DNA from: a virus
Lineage: Duplodnaviria > Caudoviricetes
DNA: 57,730 nt
IMG/VR virus record: IMGVR_UViG_3300045141_000380
Coordinates: 1 to 57,730 of that record
Strand: one strand, 5' to 3'
In this document: positions 2,856 to 32,000 of the stretch, one piece after another
Layout: every line of letters starts with the position of its first letter
Numbering within the stretch: position 1 is the first letter of the stretch
Position numbers and translations under genes: made by a program
Notes under the pieces: generated by a model
Database searches by the model: none
Told to the model about the DNA's origin: nothing
What the model saw: the letters and a program-made list of their open reading frames with translations, nothing else

Positions 2856-3831
2856 CAAAATCGTAATAAGCTCAGGTCATGGGTTGAAGGTCCGCGGCGC
2901 CGAGGGACCGGAGGCATGGGGTCTCGACGAGGTGGACGAAGCCCGGCGCGTGGTCGACGCCCTCGCCGACGAGCTGACATTGAGCGGCGTCGAGGTGGTC
3001 ACGTATCACGACGACGTGAGCAAGACCCAGAGCGAGAACCTCGACCGCATCGTGGATTTTCATAATTCCAAAAAGCGCGATCTCGACATCAGCGTTCATT
3101 TCAACGCCTACGAACCTACCTCTGGGCCGCGGGGCGTCGAGGTGCTCTACGTGACGCAGGAGAAGCTCGCGGCGCAGCTTTCGGCGGCGATCGCATCGTG
3201 CGGGTTCATCGACCGCGGCGCCAAGTATAACGGCAACCTCGCCTTCCTCAACGGCACCGCAATGCCTGCGGTGCTGATCGAGGTGTGCTTCGTCGACAGC
3301 GAAGCCGACGTCAAGCTGTACGAAGAGAAGTTCGAAGATATCTGCAGCGCCATCGCCGACGTGCTGATCGGCAGCGAGGATGAGGAGGGTGATCGGCCGC
3401 CGCCGCCAACTGCCGGCGTGCTGTTCGAGGCGTCCGGCCGCTGCTCGAGCTTCGGCGGCCCGCAGGACGAGGGAGTGGCGCCCGACGAGGGGCTCGCCTT
3501 CATCTACGACGTCGAGGACGCGCCGCATCTGTTCCTGAAAAGGCAGCCGCCCGGCACCACCGGACTGGCGCGCCGGCTCGATCCATCCGTCCGCTACATC
3601 GCGTGCCGCTGGGACTACGACGTCACCCCGAAGCAGATGCTGCTGAAGGGGGTGGCGCTGGTGCGCGCTAAAAAGACCGGCCGTTCGTTCCTCGCCTACC
3701 CAGCCGACTGGGGCCCGCACCAGGACACCGGGCGCATTGCTGACCTGTCGCCCGGCCTGATGGAAGCCCTCGGCATCGAGACCGACGACGAGGTCGAGGT
3801 TTTCTATCCGTATCATCCGGGCAGACCATGA
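2845..3831 (+). CDS. endolysin: N-acetylmuramoyl-L-alanine amidase (Amidase_3) plus C-terminal RlpA/DPBB-like domain
   Basis: ISSGHG, ISVHFNA, GVEVLY, PAVLIEVCFVDS zinc-amidase motifs; C-terminal ADWGP...GRIADLSPGLMEALG. Confidence 0.85.
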   Translation: MSYDKIVISSGHGLKVRGAEGPEAWGLDEVDEARRVVDALADELTLSGVEVVTYHDDVSKTQSENLDRIVDFHNSKKRDLDISVHFNAYEPTSGPRGVEVLYVTQEKLAAQLSAAIASCGFIDRGAKYNGNLAFLNGTAMPAVLIEVCFVDSEADVKLYEEKFEDICSAIADVLIGSEDEEGDRPPPPTAGVLFEASGRCSSFGGPQDEGVAPDEGLAFIYDVEDAPHLFLKRQPPGTTGLARRLDPSVRYIACRWDYDVTPKQMLLKGVALVRAKKTGRSFLAYPADWGPHQDTGRIADLSPGLMEALGIETDDEVEVFYPYHPGRP

Positions 3832-4052
3832 TGATCGACGCCACCAACGTCGCCACCAGCGCTATCGACGCCATGAAGTCGACGCCGCTGGCGATTGCGC
3901 TCTTGGTGATCAATATCGGATTTCTCGGCTTTGCCGCCTATGTGCTGGGCGAGGTGGCGTCGAACTCCGCGGAGCGCAACAAGGGGCAGCTCGAGCTGAT
4001 CACCAGCCTGGTGCGCGACATCCGCGATTGCCGGCAACCAGCGGCCAAATAG
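3828..4052 (+). CDS. small membrane protein, putative holin
   Basis: One hydrophobic helix; coupled to endolysin stop. Confidence 0.5.
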   Translation: MMIDATNVATSAIDAMKSTPLAIALLVINIGFLGFAAYVLGEVASNSAERNKGQLELITSLVRDIRDCRQPAAK

Positions 4053-4283: not shown

Positions 4284-4649
4284 ATGCCGCTACAGGTCCT
4301 CAATGGCCCTTTCATCCGCGCCGGCCAGTCTCTGTCGGAAGGGCTCGACTGCTCGGCCGGTGAGATCGTGCGGATCACCATGCCGGGCGACTGGACGCCG
4401 GCGGCGCTGAGCTTCCAGTTCTCGACCGACGGCGCAATGTATAACGAACTTTACCACGTCGTCGGCTTCCCGGATTCGTTCGTCGGTTATCCGGTGGTGC
4501 TGACCCGCGTGGTGGCAGGGATCGGGCTGGTGATGCCAGCGAACTTCAGCCGCGGCATCGTGTGGGTGAAGTTCCGCTCCGGCACGCAAGCGGTTCCGGT
4601 CGTCCAGCAGATGGAGCGCGAATTCGCGGTGGCGATCGAGGTTCCGTAA
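4284..4649 (+). CDS. putative virion structural protein (beta-rich)
   Basis: GGAG RBS; paralogous to N-terminus of next gene. Confidence 0.6.
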   Translation: MPLQVLNGPFIRAGQSLSEGLDCSAGEIVRITMPGDWTPAALSFQFSTDGAMYNELYHVVGFPDSFVGYPVVLTRVVAGIGLVMPANFSRGIVWVKFRSGTQAVPVVQQMEREFAVAIEVP

Positions 4650-4711
4650 AACATGGCAGCCGGCCGAGCTGATCGGGGGTCTTGGCCGGGCATTCCACTG
4701 AGGAGGTTGCG

Positions 4712-5527
4712 ATGTCGCTCATGAGGGTGCCGTGCCTGTTGCCTGCCGGACAATCGCTGTCGCAGGGAGCAGACTGCGGCGGCAACGGTCGGATTATCCG
4801 CATCAGCATGCCGCAGGACTGGACGCCGGCGCCGATAACGTTCCAGCTGTCGCCGGACGACACGACTTATCGCGATCTTTATCATACCACGCCGGATCAG
4901 TTCAGCATTTTCGAGGTGTCCGTCTCGGCGGTGCCGGGCGCCGTCGTGGTGCTGCCGGCGTCCATGGGTGGTGGGATTTCGTGGCTGAAGATACGTTCGG
5001 GCACTCGTACGGTGCCGGTGGCGCAGGCTGCGGATCGGCAGTTCACCATCACGTTGGATGCGCCGGATGCGGTGGCAGGTGGCGCACCTGGCCCTGCGGG
5101 ACCAGTTGGGCCTGCGGGGCCGATCGGGCCTGCGGGGCCGCAAGGCATCCATGGGGATCCGGCAGCCCCCGCTCTGCTGCAGACGGTCGTGCTCGGGCAT
5201 GCCAAGGGGGTGAACTACAACGTCATCGGCGACACCGCGATCGCGATAGCCGCCGCCAAGTACGCCATTACCCAGCTAGTGACGTTCAACAACGTCGGCG
5301 GTGCGGACAATTACACCGGCTCATTGCGGGATGCACCTAATGGCGCCGGGACCGATCTGGGCGGCTACGCCTATAATACGAACGGCCAGCTCGGCGACTG
5401 GTCGGACTTTCCGGGGCCGCTCCCAGTTATCGCCAATCCGATGCTGTATTTTCACATCGGCACCAAAGAAGGTGCTCCGGCGACGGGCGATCTTTACGTG
5501 ATGGGCTACGACCTGACAGGTTTGTAA
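4712..5527 (+). CDS. putative virion protein with short collagen-like segment
   Basis: GAGGAGG RBS; N-domain paralog of 4284-4649; [13 protein letters not shown] repeat. Confidence 0.65.
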   Translation: MSLMRVPCLLPAGQSLSQGADCGGNGRIIRISMPQDWTPAPITFQLSPDDTTYRDLYHTTPDQFSIFEVSVSAVPGAVVVLPASMGGGISWLKIRSGTRTVPVAQAADRQFTITLDAPDAVAGGAPGPAGPVGPAGPIGPAGPQGIHGDPAAPALLQTVVLGHAKGVNYNVIGDTAIAIAAAKYAITQLVTFNNVGGADNYTGSLRDAPNGAGTDLGGYAYNTNGQLGDWSDFPGPLPVIANPMLYFHIGTKEGAPATGDLYVMGYDLTGL

Positions 5528-6273: not shown

Positions 6274-6468
6274 ATGGCGCGCGGGATGGCGCCGATGATG
6301 CGCCCGCCCAAACCCGTCGATCCGGCCAAGGCTGTGACCAAGCCGCCACGGCTCAAGCCGATCTCGACGCGCGAATACGGCAAGGGCGGCACGCCGCTGT
6401 CGGGCGCGCCCGACTTGGGCGTCCGCGGCGCCGGGATTGGATATGGAGGGCCGAAGGATGGTTTTTAA
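6274..6468 (+). CDS. small hypothetical protein
   Basis: Tightly packed ORF in head operon. Confidence 0.5.
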   Translation: MARGMAPMMRPPKPVDPAKAVTKPPRLKPISTREYGKGGTPLSGAPDLGVRGAGIGYGGPKDGF

Positions 6469-6694
6469 GAAAGACCTGACACCGCTCAGCCGCCACGGCC
6501 GCATCGTCAAGCACCAGGGCAAGGGCTCGTCGCGCTTGGCGCCGGACCCGATGGCGGCCATGACCAATCGCTATCCAGCGGCACCGCAGCCGGTGGCGCC
6601 GCCGACCAGCGCGCCGGCGATGGGCGGTCCGGCGCTGGGCTCAGCACCGCCAGCAGGGCCACCCGGCACAGGAATTCCAGACGACGCCGCATGA
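6458..6694 (+). CDS. small Pro-rich hypothetical protein
   Basis: GGAGG RBS; coupled to next gene. Confidence 0.5.
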   Translation: MVFKKDLTPLSRHGRIVKHQGKGSSRLAPDPMAAMTNRYPAAPQPVAPPTSAPAMGGPALGSAPPAGPPGTGIPDDAA

Positions 6695-6906
6695 GTTCGA
6701 CCAAGGACATTACGGACAACGCGCGCTTTTTGCGCAATGCGTCGCCGCAGGCATTCGATAAATTCATTGTCGCGTTCGCGCAATACACCGCGCAGGCCAC
6801 CGACAACCTGGTCAACACGACCACGGATTTGCCGGTGGCGCAGGGGCGAGCGCAGCAATGCGTGAAAATCCTGCAAGCCCTCCAGGAGGCCAGGGACCAT
6901 GGTTGA
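6691..6906 (+). CDS. conserved head-region hypothetical protein
   Basis: ATGA overlap; AQGRAQ motif before scaffold gene. Confidence 0.55.
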   Translation: MSSTKDITDNARFLRNASPQAFDKFIVAFAQYTAQATDNLVNTTTDLPVAQGRAQQCVKILQALQEARDHG

Positions 6907-8002: not shown

Positions 8003-10399
8003 ATGGCTATCCCCACTGCGGGGTTTGGCGTCGCAACATCCGGCACGACGCCTCCCCTTACCCCCGTCGGCTCTACCGCCAACACGCTGCAATCGACCGG
8101 GTTCATCCCGGAGATATGGAGTGCAAAACTCGTCGAAAAATTTTATGCGAGTACCGTCTTGTCCGCGATATCGAATACCGATTATGAGGGCGAAATCGCG
8201 AATATGAGCGACCGGGTGAAAATCCGGACAAAACCCACGATCACGATCCGACCCTACCTTGCCGACGGTTTGCTTGGGCTTGATCGCCCGTCCGGCGGCT
8301 CGGTCGAGCTGTATATCGGGAACGGCTACTACTTCAGCCTGATCCTCGACGACGTGATGGAGGTGCAGAGCGATCTCAATCTGCTGAGCATGTGGAGTGA
8401 CGATAATTACGTTGTGTCGTCGGTAAACTAGGTCTAAAAAACTGGAAACCTTTATAAGGTAACCAGAGGGAAGGGATAGCAAGTTGATCTTGAGTGACAA
8501 ATACGCTGCTGGATTTCTTGATGGGGATGGTTCGATTCTTGTCGAGTCAATCAACAATGGTGCTGGAAAACGCCTTGTTTTGGCTTTCCATCAAAAAGAA
8601 TCCAATGGCGGAGTCATCGATCTTCTTGCTCAGCGGTTTTCAGGTGGACTACGGGATGACCGTTCTGGTCGCCGTCGAGGGACTGTAACTCATGCAGCTC
8701 GTCTTCGGTTTACCGGGCAAAAAGCGGTTGATCTGGTGTGCCGGTTGAAACCGTATCTCGTGGCAAAGCGTGTTCGTACTAACCGTATCCTGAGTGAGCT
8801 TGGGTTCACCGAACGGATAGGAACGGACAGCATTCCTGTTTATCCGTCTCGCAATTGGCTGGCGGGTTATTTCGATGCTGATGGTTGTGTGTATGCGCAC
8901 GCGAACAAGCGTACCGCAACTGTCAAACTGTCGATTGATTCCGATGGCCTGGAGAAGGATGGTCTCGTCCTGGTGCAGAAGGCATTTGGCGGGGTCATCC
9001 GGCAGCGAGGCGCGACAGGCAATTGCTGGCGATGGGAAGTTTCTGCGGATGCTGCGTTGGTCCGCAAGTTCTTCGATCCAATCGCGAAGCATCTGACTGT
9101 TAAACGGGAACAGGCGTATTTCATTCTGGGCTGCGCGAGGATGGGACATTTTCGCGACGGTCAGGTGATCGAAGATACGTTGAAGGCCATGAAGACCCAC
9201 CCGCACAGACTAAATGACCTGGCGGCTACTGTGGATGTATCTGCTGTACTTGCTCTAGTGCGTAATGTGCCCGATCCGCAAGGCCGATATTGGCATGCGG
9301 AAGGCGTTTTCTGCCAATGCGGAGGTAAGCCTTACGCTAAAGGCTTGTGCAAGAATTGCTGGCAGAATGAGCGCTATCATAGGCTCAAGCAGCCTACGCG
9401 CCATTATACTAGACGCAAACAGGCAGCGATCCCGGTGGTTGAAGCGATAGTCGGGACGAACGCTTAAAGGCGCTCGTTGGGCAGCACAGCAGTTAAAGAT
9501 CACGGTCGACAAGGACGTGCTCGGTGGGATTGTTGCCAAGGCCAACGCGTTCAACATGGGCGCGACGGCGGGCAGCGTTTCCGGCAACCTGAACCTCGGC
9601 ATCAAGGGCACGCCGCTGACGCTTGTGGGGGCGACGCCCACGACCGGGCAGATAACGATCCTGGATTGTCTGCTGCGGATGGGGCAGTGCCTCGACGAGT
9701 TCAACATCCCGGAGATCGGCCGGTGGGTGGTGATGCCGTCCTGGGCCGGGCGGCAGATCAAGCAAAGCGAACTCCGGCAAGCCTATCTGTCGGGCGATCC
9801 GGTGTCGATGCTGCGCAACGGCCGGCTCGGGATGGTGGACCGGTTCACGATCTATATCTCGAACCTGCTGCCGACGTCGGTTCAGGACGCGACGCATTTT
9901 GCGGCCGGCGAATACCCGATCTTCGCAGGGCATGCTCATGCGATCACGTTCGCGTCGCAAATCAGTAAGGTCGAAACATTGCGTTCCGAGCTGACATTTG
10001 GCCAAATCCTCAGAGGGTTAAAATTAGCTCTCGTTAAACTCCGTGAATTCGTCTGGGAAGCCCTGAGAGCCGAAGCGACCACAGCACAACCGGTAACGGT
10101 ATATGCGACGGTTTGAAAACATTTCGGATTGGGTAATCAGCAGCCAAGCCGCCCTGGAAGGGGTGGAAGGTTCAACGACTAGGCTGAGTAGTCCAGAACG
10201 GACGAAAAGCCCACGAGCGCGGAGCCTGCGCAAGCAGGAAGATATAGTCTGGTCTGCGGCGAAAGTCGCAGGGGGTCGGATAAAGAGCCGACCGATTGAT
10301 CTGATTGTACAGATCATGAAACACAACGTACAAGTGTATGGGTATCAAGTCCTAGACAACACAGCTTTGGTGCAATCGCAGGTCATTTCTGGCGGGTAA
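8003..10399 (+). CDS. major capsid protein (P22 gp5-like coat family), spliced join(8003..8404,9481..10018,10329..10399), 336 aa
   Basis: FIPEIWSAKLVEKFY...ISNTDYEGEI coat motif; joining gives continuous SMWSDD|AAQQLKITVD and FGQILRG-L-QVYGYQVL; exons total 1011 nt in frame. Confidence 0.88.
8405..9480 (+). ncRNA. group I self-splicing intron 1 in capsid gene (1076 nt, contains LAGLIDADG ORF)
   Basis: Exon ends in U8404; P1 GACGAU/GUCGUC(8416-21) with U.G wobble; P10 GUUGU/GCAGC; P3 UAGGUC(8429-34)/GACCUG(9216-21); P4 CUGG/CCAG; P7 CAGACUA(9206-12)/UAGUCG(9448-53); terminal G9480. Confidence 0.9.
8484..9467 (+). CDS. intron-encoded two-motif LAGLIDADG homing endonuclease with C-terminal Cys cluster
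   Basis: YAAGFLDGDGSI and WLAGYFDADGCV motifs; CQCGGKPYAKGLCKNC. Confidence 0.88.
   Translation: MILSDKYAAGFLDGDGSILVESINNGAGKRLVLAFHQKESNGGVIDLLAQRFSGGLRDDRSGRRRGTVTHAARLRFTGQKAVDLVCRLKPYLVAKRVRTNRILSELGFTERIGTDSIPVYPSRNWLAGYFDADGCVYAHANKRTATVKLSIDSDGLEKDGLVLVQKAFGGVIRQRGATGNCWRWEVSADAALVRKFFDPIAKHLTVKREQAYFILGCARMGHFRDGQVIEDTLKAMKTHPHRLNDLAATVDVSAVLALVRNVPDPQGRYWHAEGVFCQCGGKPYAKGLCKNCWQNERYHRLKQPTRHYTRRKQAAIPVVEAIVGTNA
10019..10328 (+). ncRNA. group I self-splicing intron 2 in capsid gene (310 nt, ORF-less, IA-like)
   Basis: Exon ends in U10018; P1 GAGGGU/GCUCUC(10027-32); Q GGGUAAUCAGCAGCCAAG; R UUCAACGACUA; S GAAGAUAUAGUCU; P3 CUCCGUG/CGCGGAG; P8 CCUGC-GCAA-GCAGG; extra stems between P7 and P3; terminal G10328. 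Confidence 0.92.
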
Positions 10400-10476
10400 A
10401 TCAAGAGGTTAGTAAAATCTCTTGACTGCCAGAACATTAGGTAATATGTTCTGGGTTTCCAGTGGAGACCCAGGAC

Positions 10477-11337
10477 ATGACTTGTGGGATTTACTTTATT
10501 CGGAGTCAGAGCGGAAAGATGTACATCGGCTCCTCGATACGGGTCGAGAAGCGCTGCATGCAGCATTTCAGCAATTTGCGTAAAAACCAGCACCATTCGC
10601 GCCGCTTATCAAAGGCATTTGTGAAGTACCAAGGCAAGGGCTTTGAGTGTGGCATTCTTGAAGAATGCCTTCCTGAAGAGTTGGAAGAGCGGGAACAGTT
10701 TTGGATCGATAAACTAAAGCCTCGATATAACTCACGCATGCAAGCGGATTCAAATAGAGGCTTGCGAATGACGGAGGCGGAGCGCGCTGCTCATGTCTTC
10801 CACATGAAAAATATGATTGCAGGCAGGCCGGAATTTCGTGATCACCTCGTCAACCTGAACAAGATGAATTGGGCTGATCCTGAAAAGAAGGCTGCCCGGG
10901 TTGCCTCTTTGAAGTCTGCGTGGACCCCAAAAAAACGCGCTGAGCAGTCCGAAAAACAGAAAGGCATCGACAACGGGAAGGCAGCTCGCGACGCTCGTTG
11001 GGCCAAACCTGGGGCCGGAGAGCGGCAAAGCAAGCTGACTAACCGGATTTGGGATCGCCGCGGTCGCAAAAACACTCCGGAAGCGGTCCACACCAAGGCG
11101 AGCGAACTCGGCTGGGAGTGCAAAGAGATCGGCCCACCAAGCAAGCCGGGTGCTGTTGATGGCCGTGTCACGATTTACTGTCCCAAGCACGACTACACCG
11201 GCATGCCGACCGTTCAAAAGTTGATGTATCAAGGGCAGGGGTGCCGGTACTGTGGCTTTGAGCGCTCATCTGAGAAGCAGATCGGTCGTCCCAAGCGCTT
11301 CGGGCCCCATGGACGCGCCGTCGCGTCAGGGCTATAA
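10477..11337 (+). CDS. free-standing GIY-YIG homing endonuclease
   Basis: CGIYFIRSQSGKMYIGSS...R...H, REQFWID, YN motifs; C-terminal CPKH...GCRYC. Confidence 0.9.
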   Translation: MTCGIYFIRSQSGKMYIGSSIRVEKRCMQHFSNLRKNQHHSRRLSKAFVKYQGKGFECGILEECLPEELEEREQFWIDKLKPRYNSRMQADSNRGLRMTEAERAAHVFHMKNMIAGRPEFRDHLVNLNKMNWADPEKKAARVASLKSAWTPKKRAEQSEKQKGIDNGKAARDARWAKPGAGERQSKLTNRIWDRRGRKNTPEAVHTKASELGWECKEIGPPSKPGAVDGRVTIYCPKHDYTGMPTVQKLMYQGQGCRYCGFERSSEKQIGRPKRFGPHGRAVASGL

Positions 11338-11589
11338 ACGGGGTGGAGGGGCGAGCGCCAACCCGCCCCTCCGGCTTCACGGCATCAGAACCACCGCACC
11401 AGAATAACCAGCCTAGCGCGGCGTTTCCTGATGGTTACAGAGATCACGACGTGCATCGTGGTCTCTCCCCATTTGGCGGACACGGCACGGCCGCTCATCG
11501 CGCCGGGAGGGGCCTAGTCCTCCCGGTGGCGCCGCTGGCCCGGCGCTTCGCCTCGTGCCCGCCAACCCCCCAGCATAGCCATCGACCGA

Positions 11590-11605
11590 TTAAGATTTTC
11601 TTAAC
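11590..11605 (+). promoter_or_regulatory. CtrA-box (TTAA-N7-TTAAC)
   Basis: TTAA GATTTTC TTAAC, 37 bp upstream of the adaptor/tail operon start. Confidence 0.55.
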
Positions 11606-11642
11606 ACTTGCCGGGTAGGCTCGGCCCGGCACGAGGGAGCCC

Positions 11643-13140: not shown

Positions 13141-13998
13141 ATGCCGCTTCGTACAAATGAGCCAGCTCCTATTGCCACCAGGCCGGTCGTGGTGGTTGGC
13201 GGTCATACCGGACCGCCTGGTGGGCCGAGTGGACCGACTGGGCCGACGGGTGCGACCGGAATAGCGTCTACCGGACCCACGGGCGCCGGCGCATTCACCG
13301 GGCCGACGGGGTTTACCGGTCCGACCGGGCCGGGGGCAATCACGGGCCCGACCGGATCGACTGGGATGACGGGTCCGGTAGCTGCCGGGCTTCCTGGCCC
13401 GACGGGTGCGACAGGTCCCAGCGGAGCCGGGCCGACTGGACTTACGGGCCCGACCGGAGCGCCCGGCACCGCCTCGGGCACTGGGGCGACGGGTCCGACC
13501 GGACGGGTGGGTCAGACCGGTCCGACCGGTGTCCCAGGATCTGCCGTCAATACTGGCGCGACCGGGCCGACCGGCCAGGCTGGCTCTGCCGGGGCTGTAG
13601 GGGCTACTGGAGCGATCGGTCCGACCGGGCCGACCGGCATAGGGCCGACCGGTCCAGCGGGCCCAGCGGGCTCCGGCACGGGTGGCACGGGCGGGTTCGG
13701 CGCCACTGGGCCGACCGGTCCGACTGGTGGCGGTGGAAGCGGCGGTGGCGGGTACACGGCCTCGAGCACGCCGCCGTCGTCTCCGGTCGCCGGCGACTTC
13801 TGGTACGATCTTTCGACCGGCATTCTGGCGATCTGGATTGATGACGGCACGTCTTCGCAATGGGTGCAGGTGGCGCCGCCGTTGATTGGAAGCGGTGGCG
13901 GTGGTGGCGGCGCGATGACGTTGCTCTATCCGGGAGGGTTGTTGTCGGGCCCGGTCGGGGGTGATGTGACGCTGCTTTATCCGGGGGGGTTGGTGTGA
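13141..13998 (+). CDS. collagen-like fibre protein
   Basis: Interrupted GPT/GAT triplets; C-terminal [12 protein letters not shown]...SSQWVQ. Confidence 0.8.
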
Positions 13999-14687
13999 GC
14001 ATCAATTTCCCATCGAGTCCGTCCGTTGGCCAGGTCTATACCTACGCTGGGGTGACCTACACCTATTCGCCGCAGGGTGTGTGGGTGGTCAACATGGCAG
14101 CGGCAGGCTCGGGGCCGACAGGTAGCACGGGCCCGACCGGTTCGGCAGGTGTTGATGGCACTGGCGGCACCGGGTCGACAGGTCCGACCGGAGCGGTCGG
14201 TCCGACAGGTAGCGGTGGGTCCGGGACAGGTGGCGTAGGCGGAACGGGACCGACCGGCGCGACTGGGGCCGGGTCGACAGGTCCGACCGGATCGACCGGA
14301 TCGACCGGTGCGGGCGGTTCGGCAGGTGGTGCAGGGGCAGTGGGTCCGACCGGGCCGTCGGGCTCGACCGGACCGGCCGGGACGATCGGAGGTGCCGGGT
14401 TTACGGGTCCGACCGGATCGACGGGCGCTGCTGGATCGGCTGGTGGGGCCGGAAGTCCTGGCGCGCCGGGAAGCACGGGCCCGACTGGATCGACAGGTGC
14501 TGTCGGATCGGCCGGTGGTGCTGGTGCGCCCGGATCGACAGGGCCGACCGGATCGACCGGCACTGCAGGATCGGCTGGTGGTGCTGGATCGACGGGACCA
14601 ACCGGTATGACTGGAGCTGGCGGCGCCGGACCGACTGGGCCGACGGGACCGTATTCGACCATGCTGATTGCGGGAGGGCTGTTCTGA
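13995..14687 (+). CDS. collagen-like fibre protein
   Basis: N-terminal [15 protein letters not shown]; GPTGSTG repeats. Confidence 0.8.
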
Positions 14688-29020: not shown

Positions 29021-32000
29021 ATGGCGGACGACGAAACCAATCTTGTCGATCAGTCCGCTCCCCCGGAGCAGAATTATTTTGCGCAATTCGGCGCTCCTCA
29101 TGCTGTGCCGCAGGAGGATAACTATTTCGCGCAATTTGGTGCTCCTCCTGCGGCACAGCAGGAAACCAACTATTTCGCCCGCTTTGCCCCTCCGCTCGCT
29201 ACTGGCGAGAAGCAACAGGACGCGCAGCCGAAGGAGCCTGAGGCCGAAGGCACGCTCGGCACTATCGCCCGCAAGGTCGTCCACAACGTGCTGCCGACAG
29301 CCGCTGCCATCGGCACCGGGGTGCTCACGGCGCCCGCCGGACCATGGGTGGCGATCCCGGCCGGCATCGGGGCTTTCTGGGGCACATCGGAGCTGCAGGA
29401 GAAAGGGCTCAAGGCGCTGGGCTACGGCGACGAGCACCAGCGGGCCGCCAACGCCCAGGCCAACCCCAAGGCCGATATCGCCGCTGACGTCTTGTCGGCC
29501 GCCATCCCGTTCGGTGTTGGGCCCAAGCTCGCGTTGGCGCAGCGTGCGCTCGGCGGCGGCATCGGGGTGGGCCTGGAAGGGGTTAGCCAGCTGCGGCAGG
29601 GCGAATTCGACCTCACCCGTTTGGGTGTTGCAGGAGCCACGGGCTTCACGTTCAACCAGCCGAGAGCCGGCACCGCGGCGTTCGAGCGTGGTGTAGCAGC
29701 GCTGGGTGCGCGGGCCGTGCCCCACGGCTCGCCCGGAGCGGAAGCAGCCGCCGGCACCGCCGAGGCAAAGCCGGCGCCAACCGAAGCCGGCGGTGCACCG
29801 CAGCCGGTCAACACCAACAATTATGGCAAGGCCGAGCCGAGACCTGCGTCGGCAGAAGAGGCCGCCGGTGGCGTCAACCTCGGGTCCGATCCGACCATCG
29901 AGGCGGCGCTGCGGGCCAAGATGCAGCCCGAAGGCGGGGCGGAGCCCGCTGCAGAGCCGCCGACAGCCTTCGGGCAGAAGCTGGATGCGGAGTTTCCCAG
30001 AATTCCCGATGCCGCCGCACAGGCTCGGCCGCTCGTCGAAGAGCGTGCAGCGCCGCCGGCACCTGCCGCTCCGCCCGAATACAGGGTCACCAATGACACC
30101 GAGACCAACCGGCATCTGCTGTTCCGCGACGGCGAGGAGATCGGCGACTTCGCCAACCGCGGCGAGGCCATGAAGGCGCGCAATCTCGCGCTCATCAAAG
30201 ACACCGCCGCACGCCGGCAACAAGCTGCGCCAGCCGCACCAGCCGCACCAGAACCAGCACGTGCGCCACCACCGCCTGAAGCGACCGCGCAGCGCGCCCC
30301 GGGCGGGGCTGCCGAGCCGGAAGGGACACCCAGGCCGCTCGGCGCAGCGCCATCCCCGCCGCCTAGTGCCCCCCCTGGCGCACCACCTGCGCCGTCACTG
30401 ATGGGCCGGTTGAGCGATTCCCTGCGCACGGCAGCCAGCAAAATCACGGACATCGGTAGCGACCTTCAAATGAAAGTCGCTCCGCTAGCGCGCGGCACAA
30501 AAGAATCCATGGTGGCCGCCAAGGACTGGGCCGACGCGAAAAGGCGCATCAGCTACGAATGGGGCGAGCGTGATCGGCAAATTACAAAGCAGTTCACCCC
30601 CGAACAGCGCAAGCGCGTGTGGGACGCCATGGACGAAGAAAGCGTCATGCGTCAACGCGGCGAGAAGAGCGAGCACATGGGGATAGCCACGCTCACCCCA
30701 GAGGAGCACGCCCTCGCCGAGACGACCCAGGAATGGGCCCGAGATACCTGGGGGCGCATGCGCGACGTCGGCATGGTCGAGGGCGAGGGACTGCCGTACT
30801 GGACGCCGCGCAAGCTGATCAACGCTGCCACCTCGGCGGCTGAAGAAGGTGGGCGCTCCATCAACCGCATCGGCAGCAACCTGAGCACCACGGCTCCGTC
30901 GCTGAAACGCCGCAAGTATCTGGAGGCAGAGCAAACCGAGGAAGCTGCGCGAGCGAGGTTCGGCGAGCAGGCCGAGATCGCGCGCGACATCCGCGCCCTG
31001 CCGCTCGCGCTCGCAGAAATGGAGCATGCAATCGCTGGCCGGCAGATGATGAATGCCATCCGTGAAGCGGGCAAGCGCACTGGGCAGGAGACCGTGGCAG
31101 TAGGCGCGAAGCCGACCGACTCCGAGCACACATGGTTCACCGTCGACCACCCGGCGTTCTACACATGGCGTCCGAAGCTCGAGGAAGCCGACACCGCGGC
31201 CTATCGCGCGGCGGTCGAGCAGACCGGCGGCATCAAGGTGCCGCCAGCCAAGATCCCGCTCATGGATCGCAATGGGGAACCGGTTTTCGAAAAAGTGCCG
31301 CTCTACGTGCGCGGAGATTTTGAAGGGCCACTGCGGGCCACGCTCTCTGAGCCGTCGGGCCTTGCCTACAAGACCGCGATGGACCTCAAAGGCAAGACCA
31401 TGGGGCTGATCATGAACTCGCCCCTGATTCACAACGCGGTGGAGTGGGGCCGCGCCTTGGCGGCAATGCCGGGCAAGGTCTTGACGTTCAAGGTCTATTT
31501 CGACGGCTACAAGGCCAGACAACCGCCCCCTGGCATGGTCGGCGCCAGCCCTACGATGGTCGAAGCGGTCAATGGCGGCATGGCGCCTATCGGTCCGCGC
31601 GGGTTTCACCAAGACATCCACGCCATCATGGAAGAGCCTAACATGGCTCCTGGCCGCTCATGGACCGCCAAGGTGACAGCCGCGATCCCGGGGTTGTTCG
31701 ACAAGAATGCCGGTGATGCCGTGAAGCGTTGGGTCGATAAGGCCGGCGACTTCTGGCACAACACCCTGCTATGGGACCGCGTCGCCGATCTGCAGGCAGG
31801 GCTCTATGTCAACTTCCGCGACAAATACATAGCGAAGGGCCACGATCCACAAGTGGCCATTCGCATGGCCGCGCACGAGGCTAACCGCTTCGCGGGCGCG
31901 CTTCCACAGGAGGCCATGTCGAACGAGGCGCGCAAGTTCGCCAATCTCGTGCTGTTCTCGCGCTCGTTCACGCTGGGCAATCTTGGCGTCATGAAGGATA

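Follow-up and report, generated by a model that had tools for sequence, protein, structure and literature searches.

Two predicted group I introns in the major capsid gene of a soil phage, one of them of a type that the Rfam model does not match

How can a major capsid protein be made from a gene that lies in three separate pieces? The question is raised by the IMG/VR virus record IMGVR_UViG_3300045141_000380, a stretch of 57,730 b from soil metagenomes with an estimated completeness of 92%, the whole of which is called the window here. Positions 8003-10399 of the window hold three open pieces on the + strand, and a sequence-only reading of this DNA had proposed that they are the exons of one coat protein gene, split by two group I introns. 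Here we present a comparative analysis of this gene, of its two inserts and of the same locus in related phages, for which 80 of 419 related viral stretches were examined (loci are designated by L numbers). The analysis supports, with high confidence, the view that both inserts are functional group I introns. Intron 2 is of a kind covered by the Rfam group I model RF00028; intron 1 appears to be of a kind outside it, with a predicted LAGLIDADG homing endonuclease open reading frame (ORF) threaded through the ribozyme core.

Joining of the pieces 8003-8404, 9481-10018 and 10329-10399 gives 1011 nucleotides (nt), encoding 336 amino acids (aa) and a stop; the three fragments, the length and the coordinates that had been claimed for the coat protein are exact. 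Of the annotated relatives, four Rhizobium phages (RHph_TM3_14A, TM27A, TM27B and TM29) are the closest, and in these the gene for the "major capsid protein" is uninterrupted. When aligned with the 328-aa capsid protein of RHph_TM3_14A, exon 1 covers residues 3-129 with 69% identity, exon 2 covers residues 130-307 with about 60-60.9% identity and exon 3 covers residues 308-323, and at neither junction is there a gap, an overlap or a duplicated residue. The joined exons are thus colinear, residue for residue, with an intron-less homologue, and contiguous alignment over the junctions is the very point on which the proposal was to be refuted if it failed. The 47 full-length uninterrupted genes among the 80 loci align with the joined exons equally without gap or overlap. 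PHROG 267 (major head protein) is matched by exon 1 at positions 20-136 (E 1.3e-11) and by exon 2 at positions 138-306 (E 5.8e-21); the two exons are therefore neighbours in the profile, though separated by 1076 nt of DNA. The capsid pieces gave no Pfam match, and a search of the PDB gave a weak match alone (8e16, E 0.0049). Together, the PHROG 267 matches and the annotated Rhizobium phage homologues identify the predicted joined product as a phage major capsid protein. In unspliced form, the exon 1 frame would continue for 8 codons to a stop at 8429-8431, and the exon 2 frame would run for 32 codons inside intron 2 to a stop at 10114-10116.

The boundaries of both inserts have the U before the intron and the G at its end that the sequence-only reading had assigned to them. 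The last bases are T8404 in exon 1 and G9480 in intron 1, and T10018 in exon 2 and G10328 in intron 2, with T10018 as the opening base of a Leu codon that is divided by intron 2. Both inserts also have the P1 helix with a U.G wobble that had been described, U8404.G8416 in intron 1 and U10018.G10027 in intron 2, where P1 has 6 base pairs, formed by 10013-10018 with 10027-10032.

For intron 2, the assignment follows from the Rfam model. RF00028 matches it over model positions 1-253, placed at 9983-10271, with 55.6 bits (gathering score 50; E 1.9e-11). Records of Pseudomonas, Bacillus and Staphylococcus phages contain stretches with 72-80% identity to its core; one of these stretches bears the annotation Intron_gpI, and several lie inside DNA polymerase genes. 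The same Leu codon is occupied by homologous introns in L030 (RF00028, 57.8 bits) and L008 (72.5 bits), both above the cut-off. The versions of intron 2 in the window, L030 and L008 are 86% alike, have a final G before identical exon codons and keep the U.G pair of P1; compensatory changes among them are found in the P6 extension and in a 3' hairpin, which is missing in L008. Removal of intron 2 restores a frame that is colinear with the homologues, and all of the intron-less loci compared read straight over the site. By these sequence comparisons, intron 2 is a group I intron.

The search with RF00028 that had been suggested for both inserts succeeded for this one and failed for intron 1, which gave no match at E<=10; over the whole window at E<=1, intron 2 alone was matched, and the ORF-bearing homologue of intron 1 in L030 gave no match at the gathering score. 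Because RF00028 confirms intron 2 only, intron 1 had to be judged by the comparison of homologues. These were collected with two queries, the endonuclease protein and a 23-nt core pattern. The protein query returned 11 loci, seven with 86% identity and four with 55-63%, the ORF homologues being located in the same intron with an overall range of 55-86%. The core pattern returned 15 viral loci and three metagenome loci. All of the intron 1 homologues lie inside capsid genes, the proteins of which are 43-88% identical to the capsid protein of the window.

Nine distinct versions of intron 1, that of the window and eight diverged homologues, were aligned on a common fold, with P3, P4, P6 and P8 nested and P7 crossing P3. 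On this fold, 98.9% of 261 cells are paired, and 8 of the 29 pairs are changed on both sides. The covariation score, 0.282 compared with 0.127 +/- 0.018 for shuffled alignments, was reached by none of 500 shuffles, and when the partners were moved by 1-3 columns 21-39% remained paired. The P7 pair 9212/9448 varies, two versions having A-U and the other seven G-C. In P1 the guide varies with the exon, with five versions of the pairing (exon/guide: GACGAU/GUCGUC, GCUGCU/GGCAGC, GCCGCU/GGCGGC, GCCAGU/GCUGGC and GCGAGU/GCUCGC), and the U.G wobble is retained in every one. The P5 and P9 hairpins are retained with a different sequence in each homologue, and the intron is closed by a G both in the window and in each of the eight homologues that have the 3' end within the available sequence. 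The P3/P4/P7 cores that had been drawn for both introns are therefore backed by Rfam in intron 2 and by covariation in intron 1. A relative without the ORF, in L108, has the same core, with P6 closed by a 7-nt loop and P8 by a short hairpin. From these comparisons we assign intron 1 to group I, as a type that lies outside the coverage of RF00028 in its ORF-less form as well. The inner two pairs of the first drawing of P8 and the fourth inner pair of P6 were dropped, not being kept in all homologues. A pattern search of the window for a second core of the intron 1 kind returned the known site and one chance match with 2 mismatches (1.23 expected by chance).

Table 1. Positions in the window of the capsid exons, the two predicted introns with the structural elements of intron 1, and the predicted endonuclease genes
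Feature	Position	Strand	Remarks
Capsid exon 1	8003..8404	+	134 codons, C-terminal end ...WSDD
Intron 1	8405..9480	+	1076 nt, group I (predicted), LAGLIDADG ORF inside, not recognised by RF00028
Intron 1 P1	8399..8421	+	exon 8399-8404 with guide 8416-8421, wobble U8404.G8416
Intron 1 possible P10	8411-8415 with 9481-9485	+	
Intron 1 5' core	8428..8475	+	P3 5' strand 8428-8434, then J3/4
Intron 1 5' core, P4/P5	P4 8442-8445 with 8463-8466; P5 hairpin 8450-8460	+	
Intron 1 P6 5' strand	8468-8470 and 8473-8475	+	
LAGLIDADG homing endonuclease ORF (predicted)	8484..9467	+	327 aa, TTG start
Intron 1 3' core, block one	9196..9231	+	P6 3' strand 9196-9198 and 9200-9202
Intron 1 P7 5' strand	9206 and 9208-9212	+	A9207 bulged
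Intron 1 P3 3' strand; P8 5' strand	9216-9222; 9224-9231	+	
Intron 1 3' core, block two	9433..9480	+	P8 3' strand 9433-9440, J8/7, P7 3' strand 9448-9453
Intron 1 P9 hairpin	9456-9477	+	then final G9480
Capsid exon 2	9481..10018	+	179 codons and first base of Leu codon
Intron 2	10019..10328	+	group I (predicted), 310 nt, without endonuclease ORF
Capsid exon 3	10329..10399	+	last two bases of Leu codon, 22 codons, TAA
Free-standing GIY-YIG homing endonuclease gene (predicted)	10462..11337	+	62 nt after capsid stop, 134 nt after intron 2

The ORF inside intron 1 is predicted to encode a LAGLIDADG homing endonuclease, on the basis of two motifs, ...LDGDGS (aa 12-17) and ...FDADGC (aa 129-134), and of two Pfam profiles above their cut-offs, PF00961 (29.8 bits, cut-off 23.1) and PF14528 (28.1 bits, cut-off 22.5). 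Both halves of the protein have weak matches to I-MsoI, I-CreI and I-CvuI. The ORF leaves 79 nt of non-coding intron before it and 13 nt after it, so the ribozyme must overlap the ORF. From its start in the P6 loop, the ORF passes by way of P6', P7, P3' and P8 to a stop in the P9 loop; the purine-rich stretch upstream of the TTG start is the P6 5' strand itself, and the P8 loop codes for a Cys-rich C-terminal segment that is kept in all nine versions. Despite its position within the ORF, the first block of the 3' core, 9196-9231, hardly varies in its DNA sequence among all of the homologues. That endonuclease ORFs can reach into intron core sequences is described in the part of PMC3984707 consulted here. 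As a separate observation, in one low-depth X3 contig position 9223 is followed, after 8 letters, by 9433 (side of 22 letters), so that 201 nt net are lost and the frame is kept. The junction removes the stretch 9224-9432, which is the P8 loop insertion coding for the Cys-rich tail; it is compatible with a variant of intron 1 without the P8 insertion and was not used as evidence.

A gene in pieces within a metagenomic record could also be a product of the assembly. In a read-contig check on four DNA runs, confined to the parts with cover, the junctions were crossed by contigs of other runs, X2 at 9339-9763 and 9784-10525 with 0 differences, and X4 at 8234-8499. In addition, seven IMG/VR contigs (L030-L036) have both introns at the sites of the window, as inserts of 1081 and 310 nt. 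Because contigs of other runs cross the junctions and L030-L036 carry both introns, the arrangement is not an assembly artefact.

Several points weigh against the interpretation of the two inserts as functional group I introns. Among the 23 listed sequencing runs with this DNA none is on record as RNA, and for this reason splicing is a matter that we infer. RF00028, when run on 8300-10500, left intron 1 unmatched, and the ORF-less relative in L108 is likewise unmatched by it. About 75 nt of the intron 1 core are shared with coding sequence, which is a burden on folding. Two of the five measures of covariation in intron 1 were weaker: of the 500 shuffled alignments, 10 reached the real number of covarying pairs and 211 the real number of pair types. 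The structure was drawn from the same sequences that were scored, which makes the shuffle and slide controls generous, and P4 and five of the six P7 pairs are invariant and thus uninformative either way. In intron 2, P10 is weak by eye.

Some of these points could be accommodated if intron 1 were group I by descent and had lost self-splicing, so that its removal depends on a host factor or on its own LAGLIDADG protein acting as a maturase. LAGLIDADG proteins can serve as maturases in organelles, the ORF overlaps P6', P7, P3', P8 and half of P9, and the core is not recognised by the Rfam model; however, all of the core helices are intact and kept by compensatory change, and a version of the core without any ORF exists in L108, which leaves a dependence of this kind unlikely. 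A more radical alternative dispenses with splicing altogether and regards the capsid gene as broken or split, its pieces being translated separately or not at all after endonuclease insertions. Such gene-splitting by free-standing endonuclease genes occurs in T4-like phages, and the lack of an RNA run on record for this DNA is in keeping with it. The position of exon 2, however, argues against separate translation, in that the stretch from the in-frame stop at 9448-9450 up to 9481 has no ATG, GTG or TTG, and the first such codon, GTG 9517, is 12 conserved codons into the exon; exon 3 would yield merely 23 residues. Nor would a split gene be expected to have an insert like intron 2, which is without an ORF yet gives a full-length Rfam group I match, or boundaries that follow the U and G rules and are colinear to the residue with intact homologues, or RNA helices kept by compensatory change over phages with a capsid identity of 43-54% to that of the window. 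We consider a split gene very improbable, well below the maturase alternative.

Lower still stands the proposition that the inserts are inteins or that the arrangement is an assembly chimera, for which we see next to no likelihood. LAGLIDADG domains are also found in inteins, but the exon frame meets stops in both inserts, after 8 codons of intron 1 and after 32 codons of intron 2, and the endonuclease ORF is in a frame that differs from that of exon 1, by which inteins were ruled out. The window is indeed a metagenome assembly, but independent contigs of other runs and samples span the junctions.

If, as we judge very likely, both inserts are functional group I introns, the capsid gene would be transcribed as one pre-mRNA with two group I ribozymes. 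In each ribozyme, the last U of the exon would pair with the guide G in P1 and a free guanosine bound in P7 would attack the bond at this U; the freed end of the exon would then attack the bond after the terminal G of the intron, and the two reactions would restore the 336-codon frame. Intron 1 would also be mobile. Its LAGLIDADG enzyme would most likely cut intron-less alleles near the WSDD/AA codons in a mixed infection, and repair of the cut would copy intron 1 into the allele (homing). Intron 2 might perhaps be mobilised by the GIY-YIG enzyme encoded downstream (collaborative homing), which is taken up below.

How common are such inserts in this family of capsid genes? In the 80 loci, 47 capsid genes are full-length and uninterrupted, 5 are partial and uninterrupted and 28 are interrupted. 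The insertions are found at about six sites, near residues 36/37, 59, 64-72, 133/134, 314 and 319 (L003-L082), and some capsid genes (L008, L012 and L044) have three inserts. When RF00028 was applied to 12 interrupted representatives, six gave a total of 10 matches above the cut-off and the other six gave none. The first site of the window holds two unrelated introns, the LAGLIDADG-bearing one of the window and L030-L036, and an ORF-less intron of ~245 nt which is inserted 3 nt upstream in L003, L012 and L044 and matches RF00028 with 77-82 bits. In the more distant homologues of intron 1 the insertion follows WSDDA(A/S), a site that lies 6 nt further downstream, and the guide matches it.

Two further arrangements were observed among the relatives. 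In L044, the inserts at 3723-3949 and 4535-4755 (residues 133 and 319) belong to the same ORF-less family and have near-identical 3' tails, a two-site pattern that suggests the spread of one intron family within the capsid gene. In L108, positions 6300-6720 (minus strand) hold an ORF-less miniature of the intron 1 family at another capsid site, after ...LVEKF, and ~60 nt past it a LAGLIDADG ORF begins in another module that resembles an intron; the two modules may form a tandem or nested arrangement.

Intron 2 has no endonuclease of its own, and the gene that follows the capsid gene is a predicted free-standing GIY-YIG homing endonuclease gene, with a match to PF01541 at 44.3 bits (cut-off 22.6) and to the I-TevI catalytic domain, 1mk0, at E 3.8e-13. 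Among the 80 loci, this gene is present in all nine that have an intron at the second site of the window (site D) and in one of the 71 that lack it (L011). A further search added two more lineages, L119 and L121, in which the GIY-YIG gene stands behind a capsid gene that is uninterrupted at site D; its occurrences are thus the window, L008, L011, L030-L036 and L119-L121. Collaborative homing is described, in the portion of PMC3984707 at hand, as a route in which an ORF-less intron relies on a neighbouring free-standing endonuclease. The nested pattern found here, with the intron never without the endonuclease and the endonuclease also alone, fits this route, and as in collaborative homing every locus with the site-D intron has the GIY-YIG gene. 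Unlike the collaborative homing systems, the GIY-YIG gene occurs here without the intron in three lineages as well. These occurrences behind intron-less capsid genes (L011/L120, L119 and L121) count against a tie to intron 2, the gene being to that extent independent of it. With about three lineages on each side of the co-occurrence pattern, we propose the mobility of intron 2 by way of its GIY-YIG neighbour tentatively, as a possibility with somewhat less than an even chance of being right. The psbA gene of cyanophage S-PM2, with F-CphI, is reportedly an example of collaborative homing.

The base composition of this region stands apart from that of the genome. The content of G and C (GC) is 0.47-0.54 in the introns, exon 3 and the GIY-YIG gene, compared with 0.614 for the genome; exon 3 has 0.465, and the spacer before the GIY-YIG gene has 0.371. 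Such low GC is as would be expected for imported DNA and co-converted flanks, and exon 3 and the spacer together (10329-10461) may have come in with the mobile elements as a co-conversion tract. Downstream of the GIY-YIG gene and before the next structural gene, positions 11338-11642 are a stretch of 305 nt with a GC of 0.669 and no convincing ORF; the corresponding gap in RHph_TM3_14A is ~90 nt. One low-depth X5 contig joins 10016 to 11499, with a side of 24 letters, and is compatible with a relative that lacks intron 2 and the GIY-YIG gene; it was not used as evidence.

Elsewhere in the window, positions 13141-14687 contain two adjacent ORFs (285 and 230 aa) that consist mostly of collagen-like Gly-X-Y repeats and probably encode fibre or decoration proteins. 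On the minus strand, 29092-29163 gave a weak, sub-threshold match to Hammerhead_HH9 (25.3 bits, cut-off 52; E 0.052).

How does this locus compare with phage introns that are already known? In the T4 td intron the I-TevI ORF, of the GIY-YIG family, lies almost wholly in a loop, and the host gene is one of nucleotide metabolism. Intron 1 resembles the td/I-TevI system in being a phage group I intron with an endonuclease ORF that is looped out from P6, with the ribosome-binding region within RNA structure, and in its predicted homing in mixed infections (general features as given in the consulted part of PMC3984707). It differs from td in that the ORF encodes a LAGLIDADG protein and extends along the 3' core as far as P8 and P9. 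With regard to the Rfam family Intron_gpI (RF00028), intron 2 is a full-length member above the cut-off; intron 1 is unmatched at E<=10, and so are its relatives, of which one lacks the ORF, though they have the P3-P9 topology.

The sequence-only reading had presented two introns in a capsid gene as unusual, and this was overstated. Within the text seen of PMC3706429, mycobacteriophage LittleE is described as having a capsid-gene intron, with splicing demonstrated by reverse transcription PCR (RT-PCR) and with a LAGLIDADG-like ORF, and a capsid-gene intron in the lactococcal phage Tuc2009 is cited there. Group I introns in capsid genes are reported for crAss-like phages, one genome having three (excerpts of PMC10136315). 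In Lactobacillus phage JCL1032, two late genes are reported to have group I introns (as cited in the part of PMC6669764 at hand). The close relatives described above add capsid genes with up to three. The likeness to LittleE includes an interrupted major capsid gene, the U before and the G at the end, the LAGLIDADG-like ORF and the detection of the intron against intron-less relatives. As far as the excerpt of PMC3706429 goes, LittleE differs in having one intron, with the ORF on the opposite strand, that is called "most likely group I" and was seen to splice by RT-PCR, compared with two introns here, a sense-strand ORF threaded through the core, and splicing that is predicted. The crAss-like Delta and Zeta phages share with the present family the presence of several group I introns in one capsid gene (three in one Zeta genome) and the metagenomic origin of the genomes; the phage lineage and the capsid family are unrelated, and the likeness is drawn from the description in a review (PMC10136315, in part). 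A literature search found no paper that joins group I intron, capsid and Rhizobium phage; supplementary files, which were outside the search, may list further capsid-gene introns.

Capsid-gene group I introns are thus already documented, and the present locus establishes no new principle; the arrangement is known but uncommon. What this analysis adds is twofold. By comparison of the related sequences, this capsid family is an intron hot-spot, in which 28 of the 80 loci have interruptions, at about six sites in all, and intron 1 represents a candidate intron type that is invisible to Rfam and has an ORF threaded through its core.

The findings have practical consequences for the annotation of such genomes, in which gene callers would give a truncated 142-aa "capsid" fragment and orphan ORFs. 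Intron screening based on Rfam detects one of the two introns, and the intron counts obtained from phage metagenomes are probably too low for the intron 1 type. For the phage itself, the most abundantly needed protein of the virion would depend on two ribozyme reactions, splicing being what the comparison predicts. The relatives with none to three introns provide a comparative set for homing, for shifts of the insertion site with co-evolution of the guide, and for co-operation between introns and free-standing endonucleases. More speculatively, and with rather more doubt than assurance, the capsid family of these soil phages may be viewed as an intron arena, with about six insertion sites in one 336-codon gene and with two intron lineages that have each settled at more than one site of it; the intron 1 lineage, a ribozyme class invisible to Rfam with a core-threaded ORF, would have moved by 6 nt with a retuned guide, and intron 2 would possibly depend on the GIY-YIG enzyme. 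If this is true, the locus would offer a natural setting in which to follow how introns transpose and how composite mobile introns arise.

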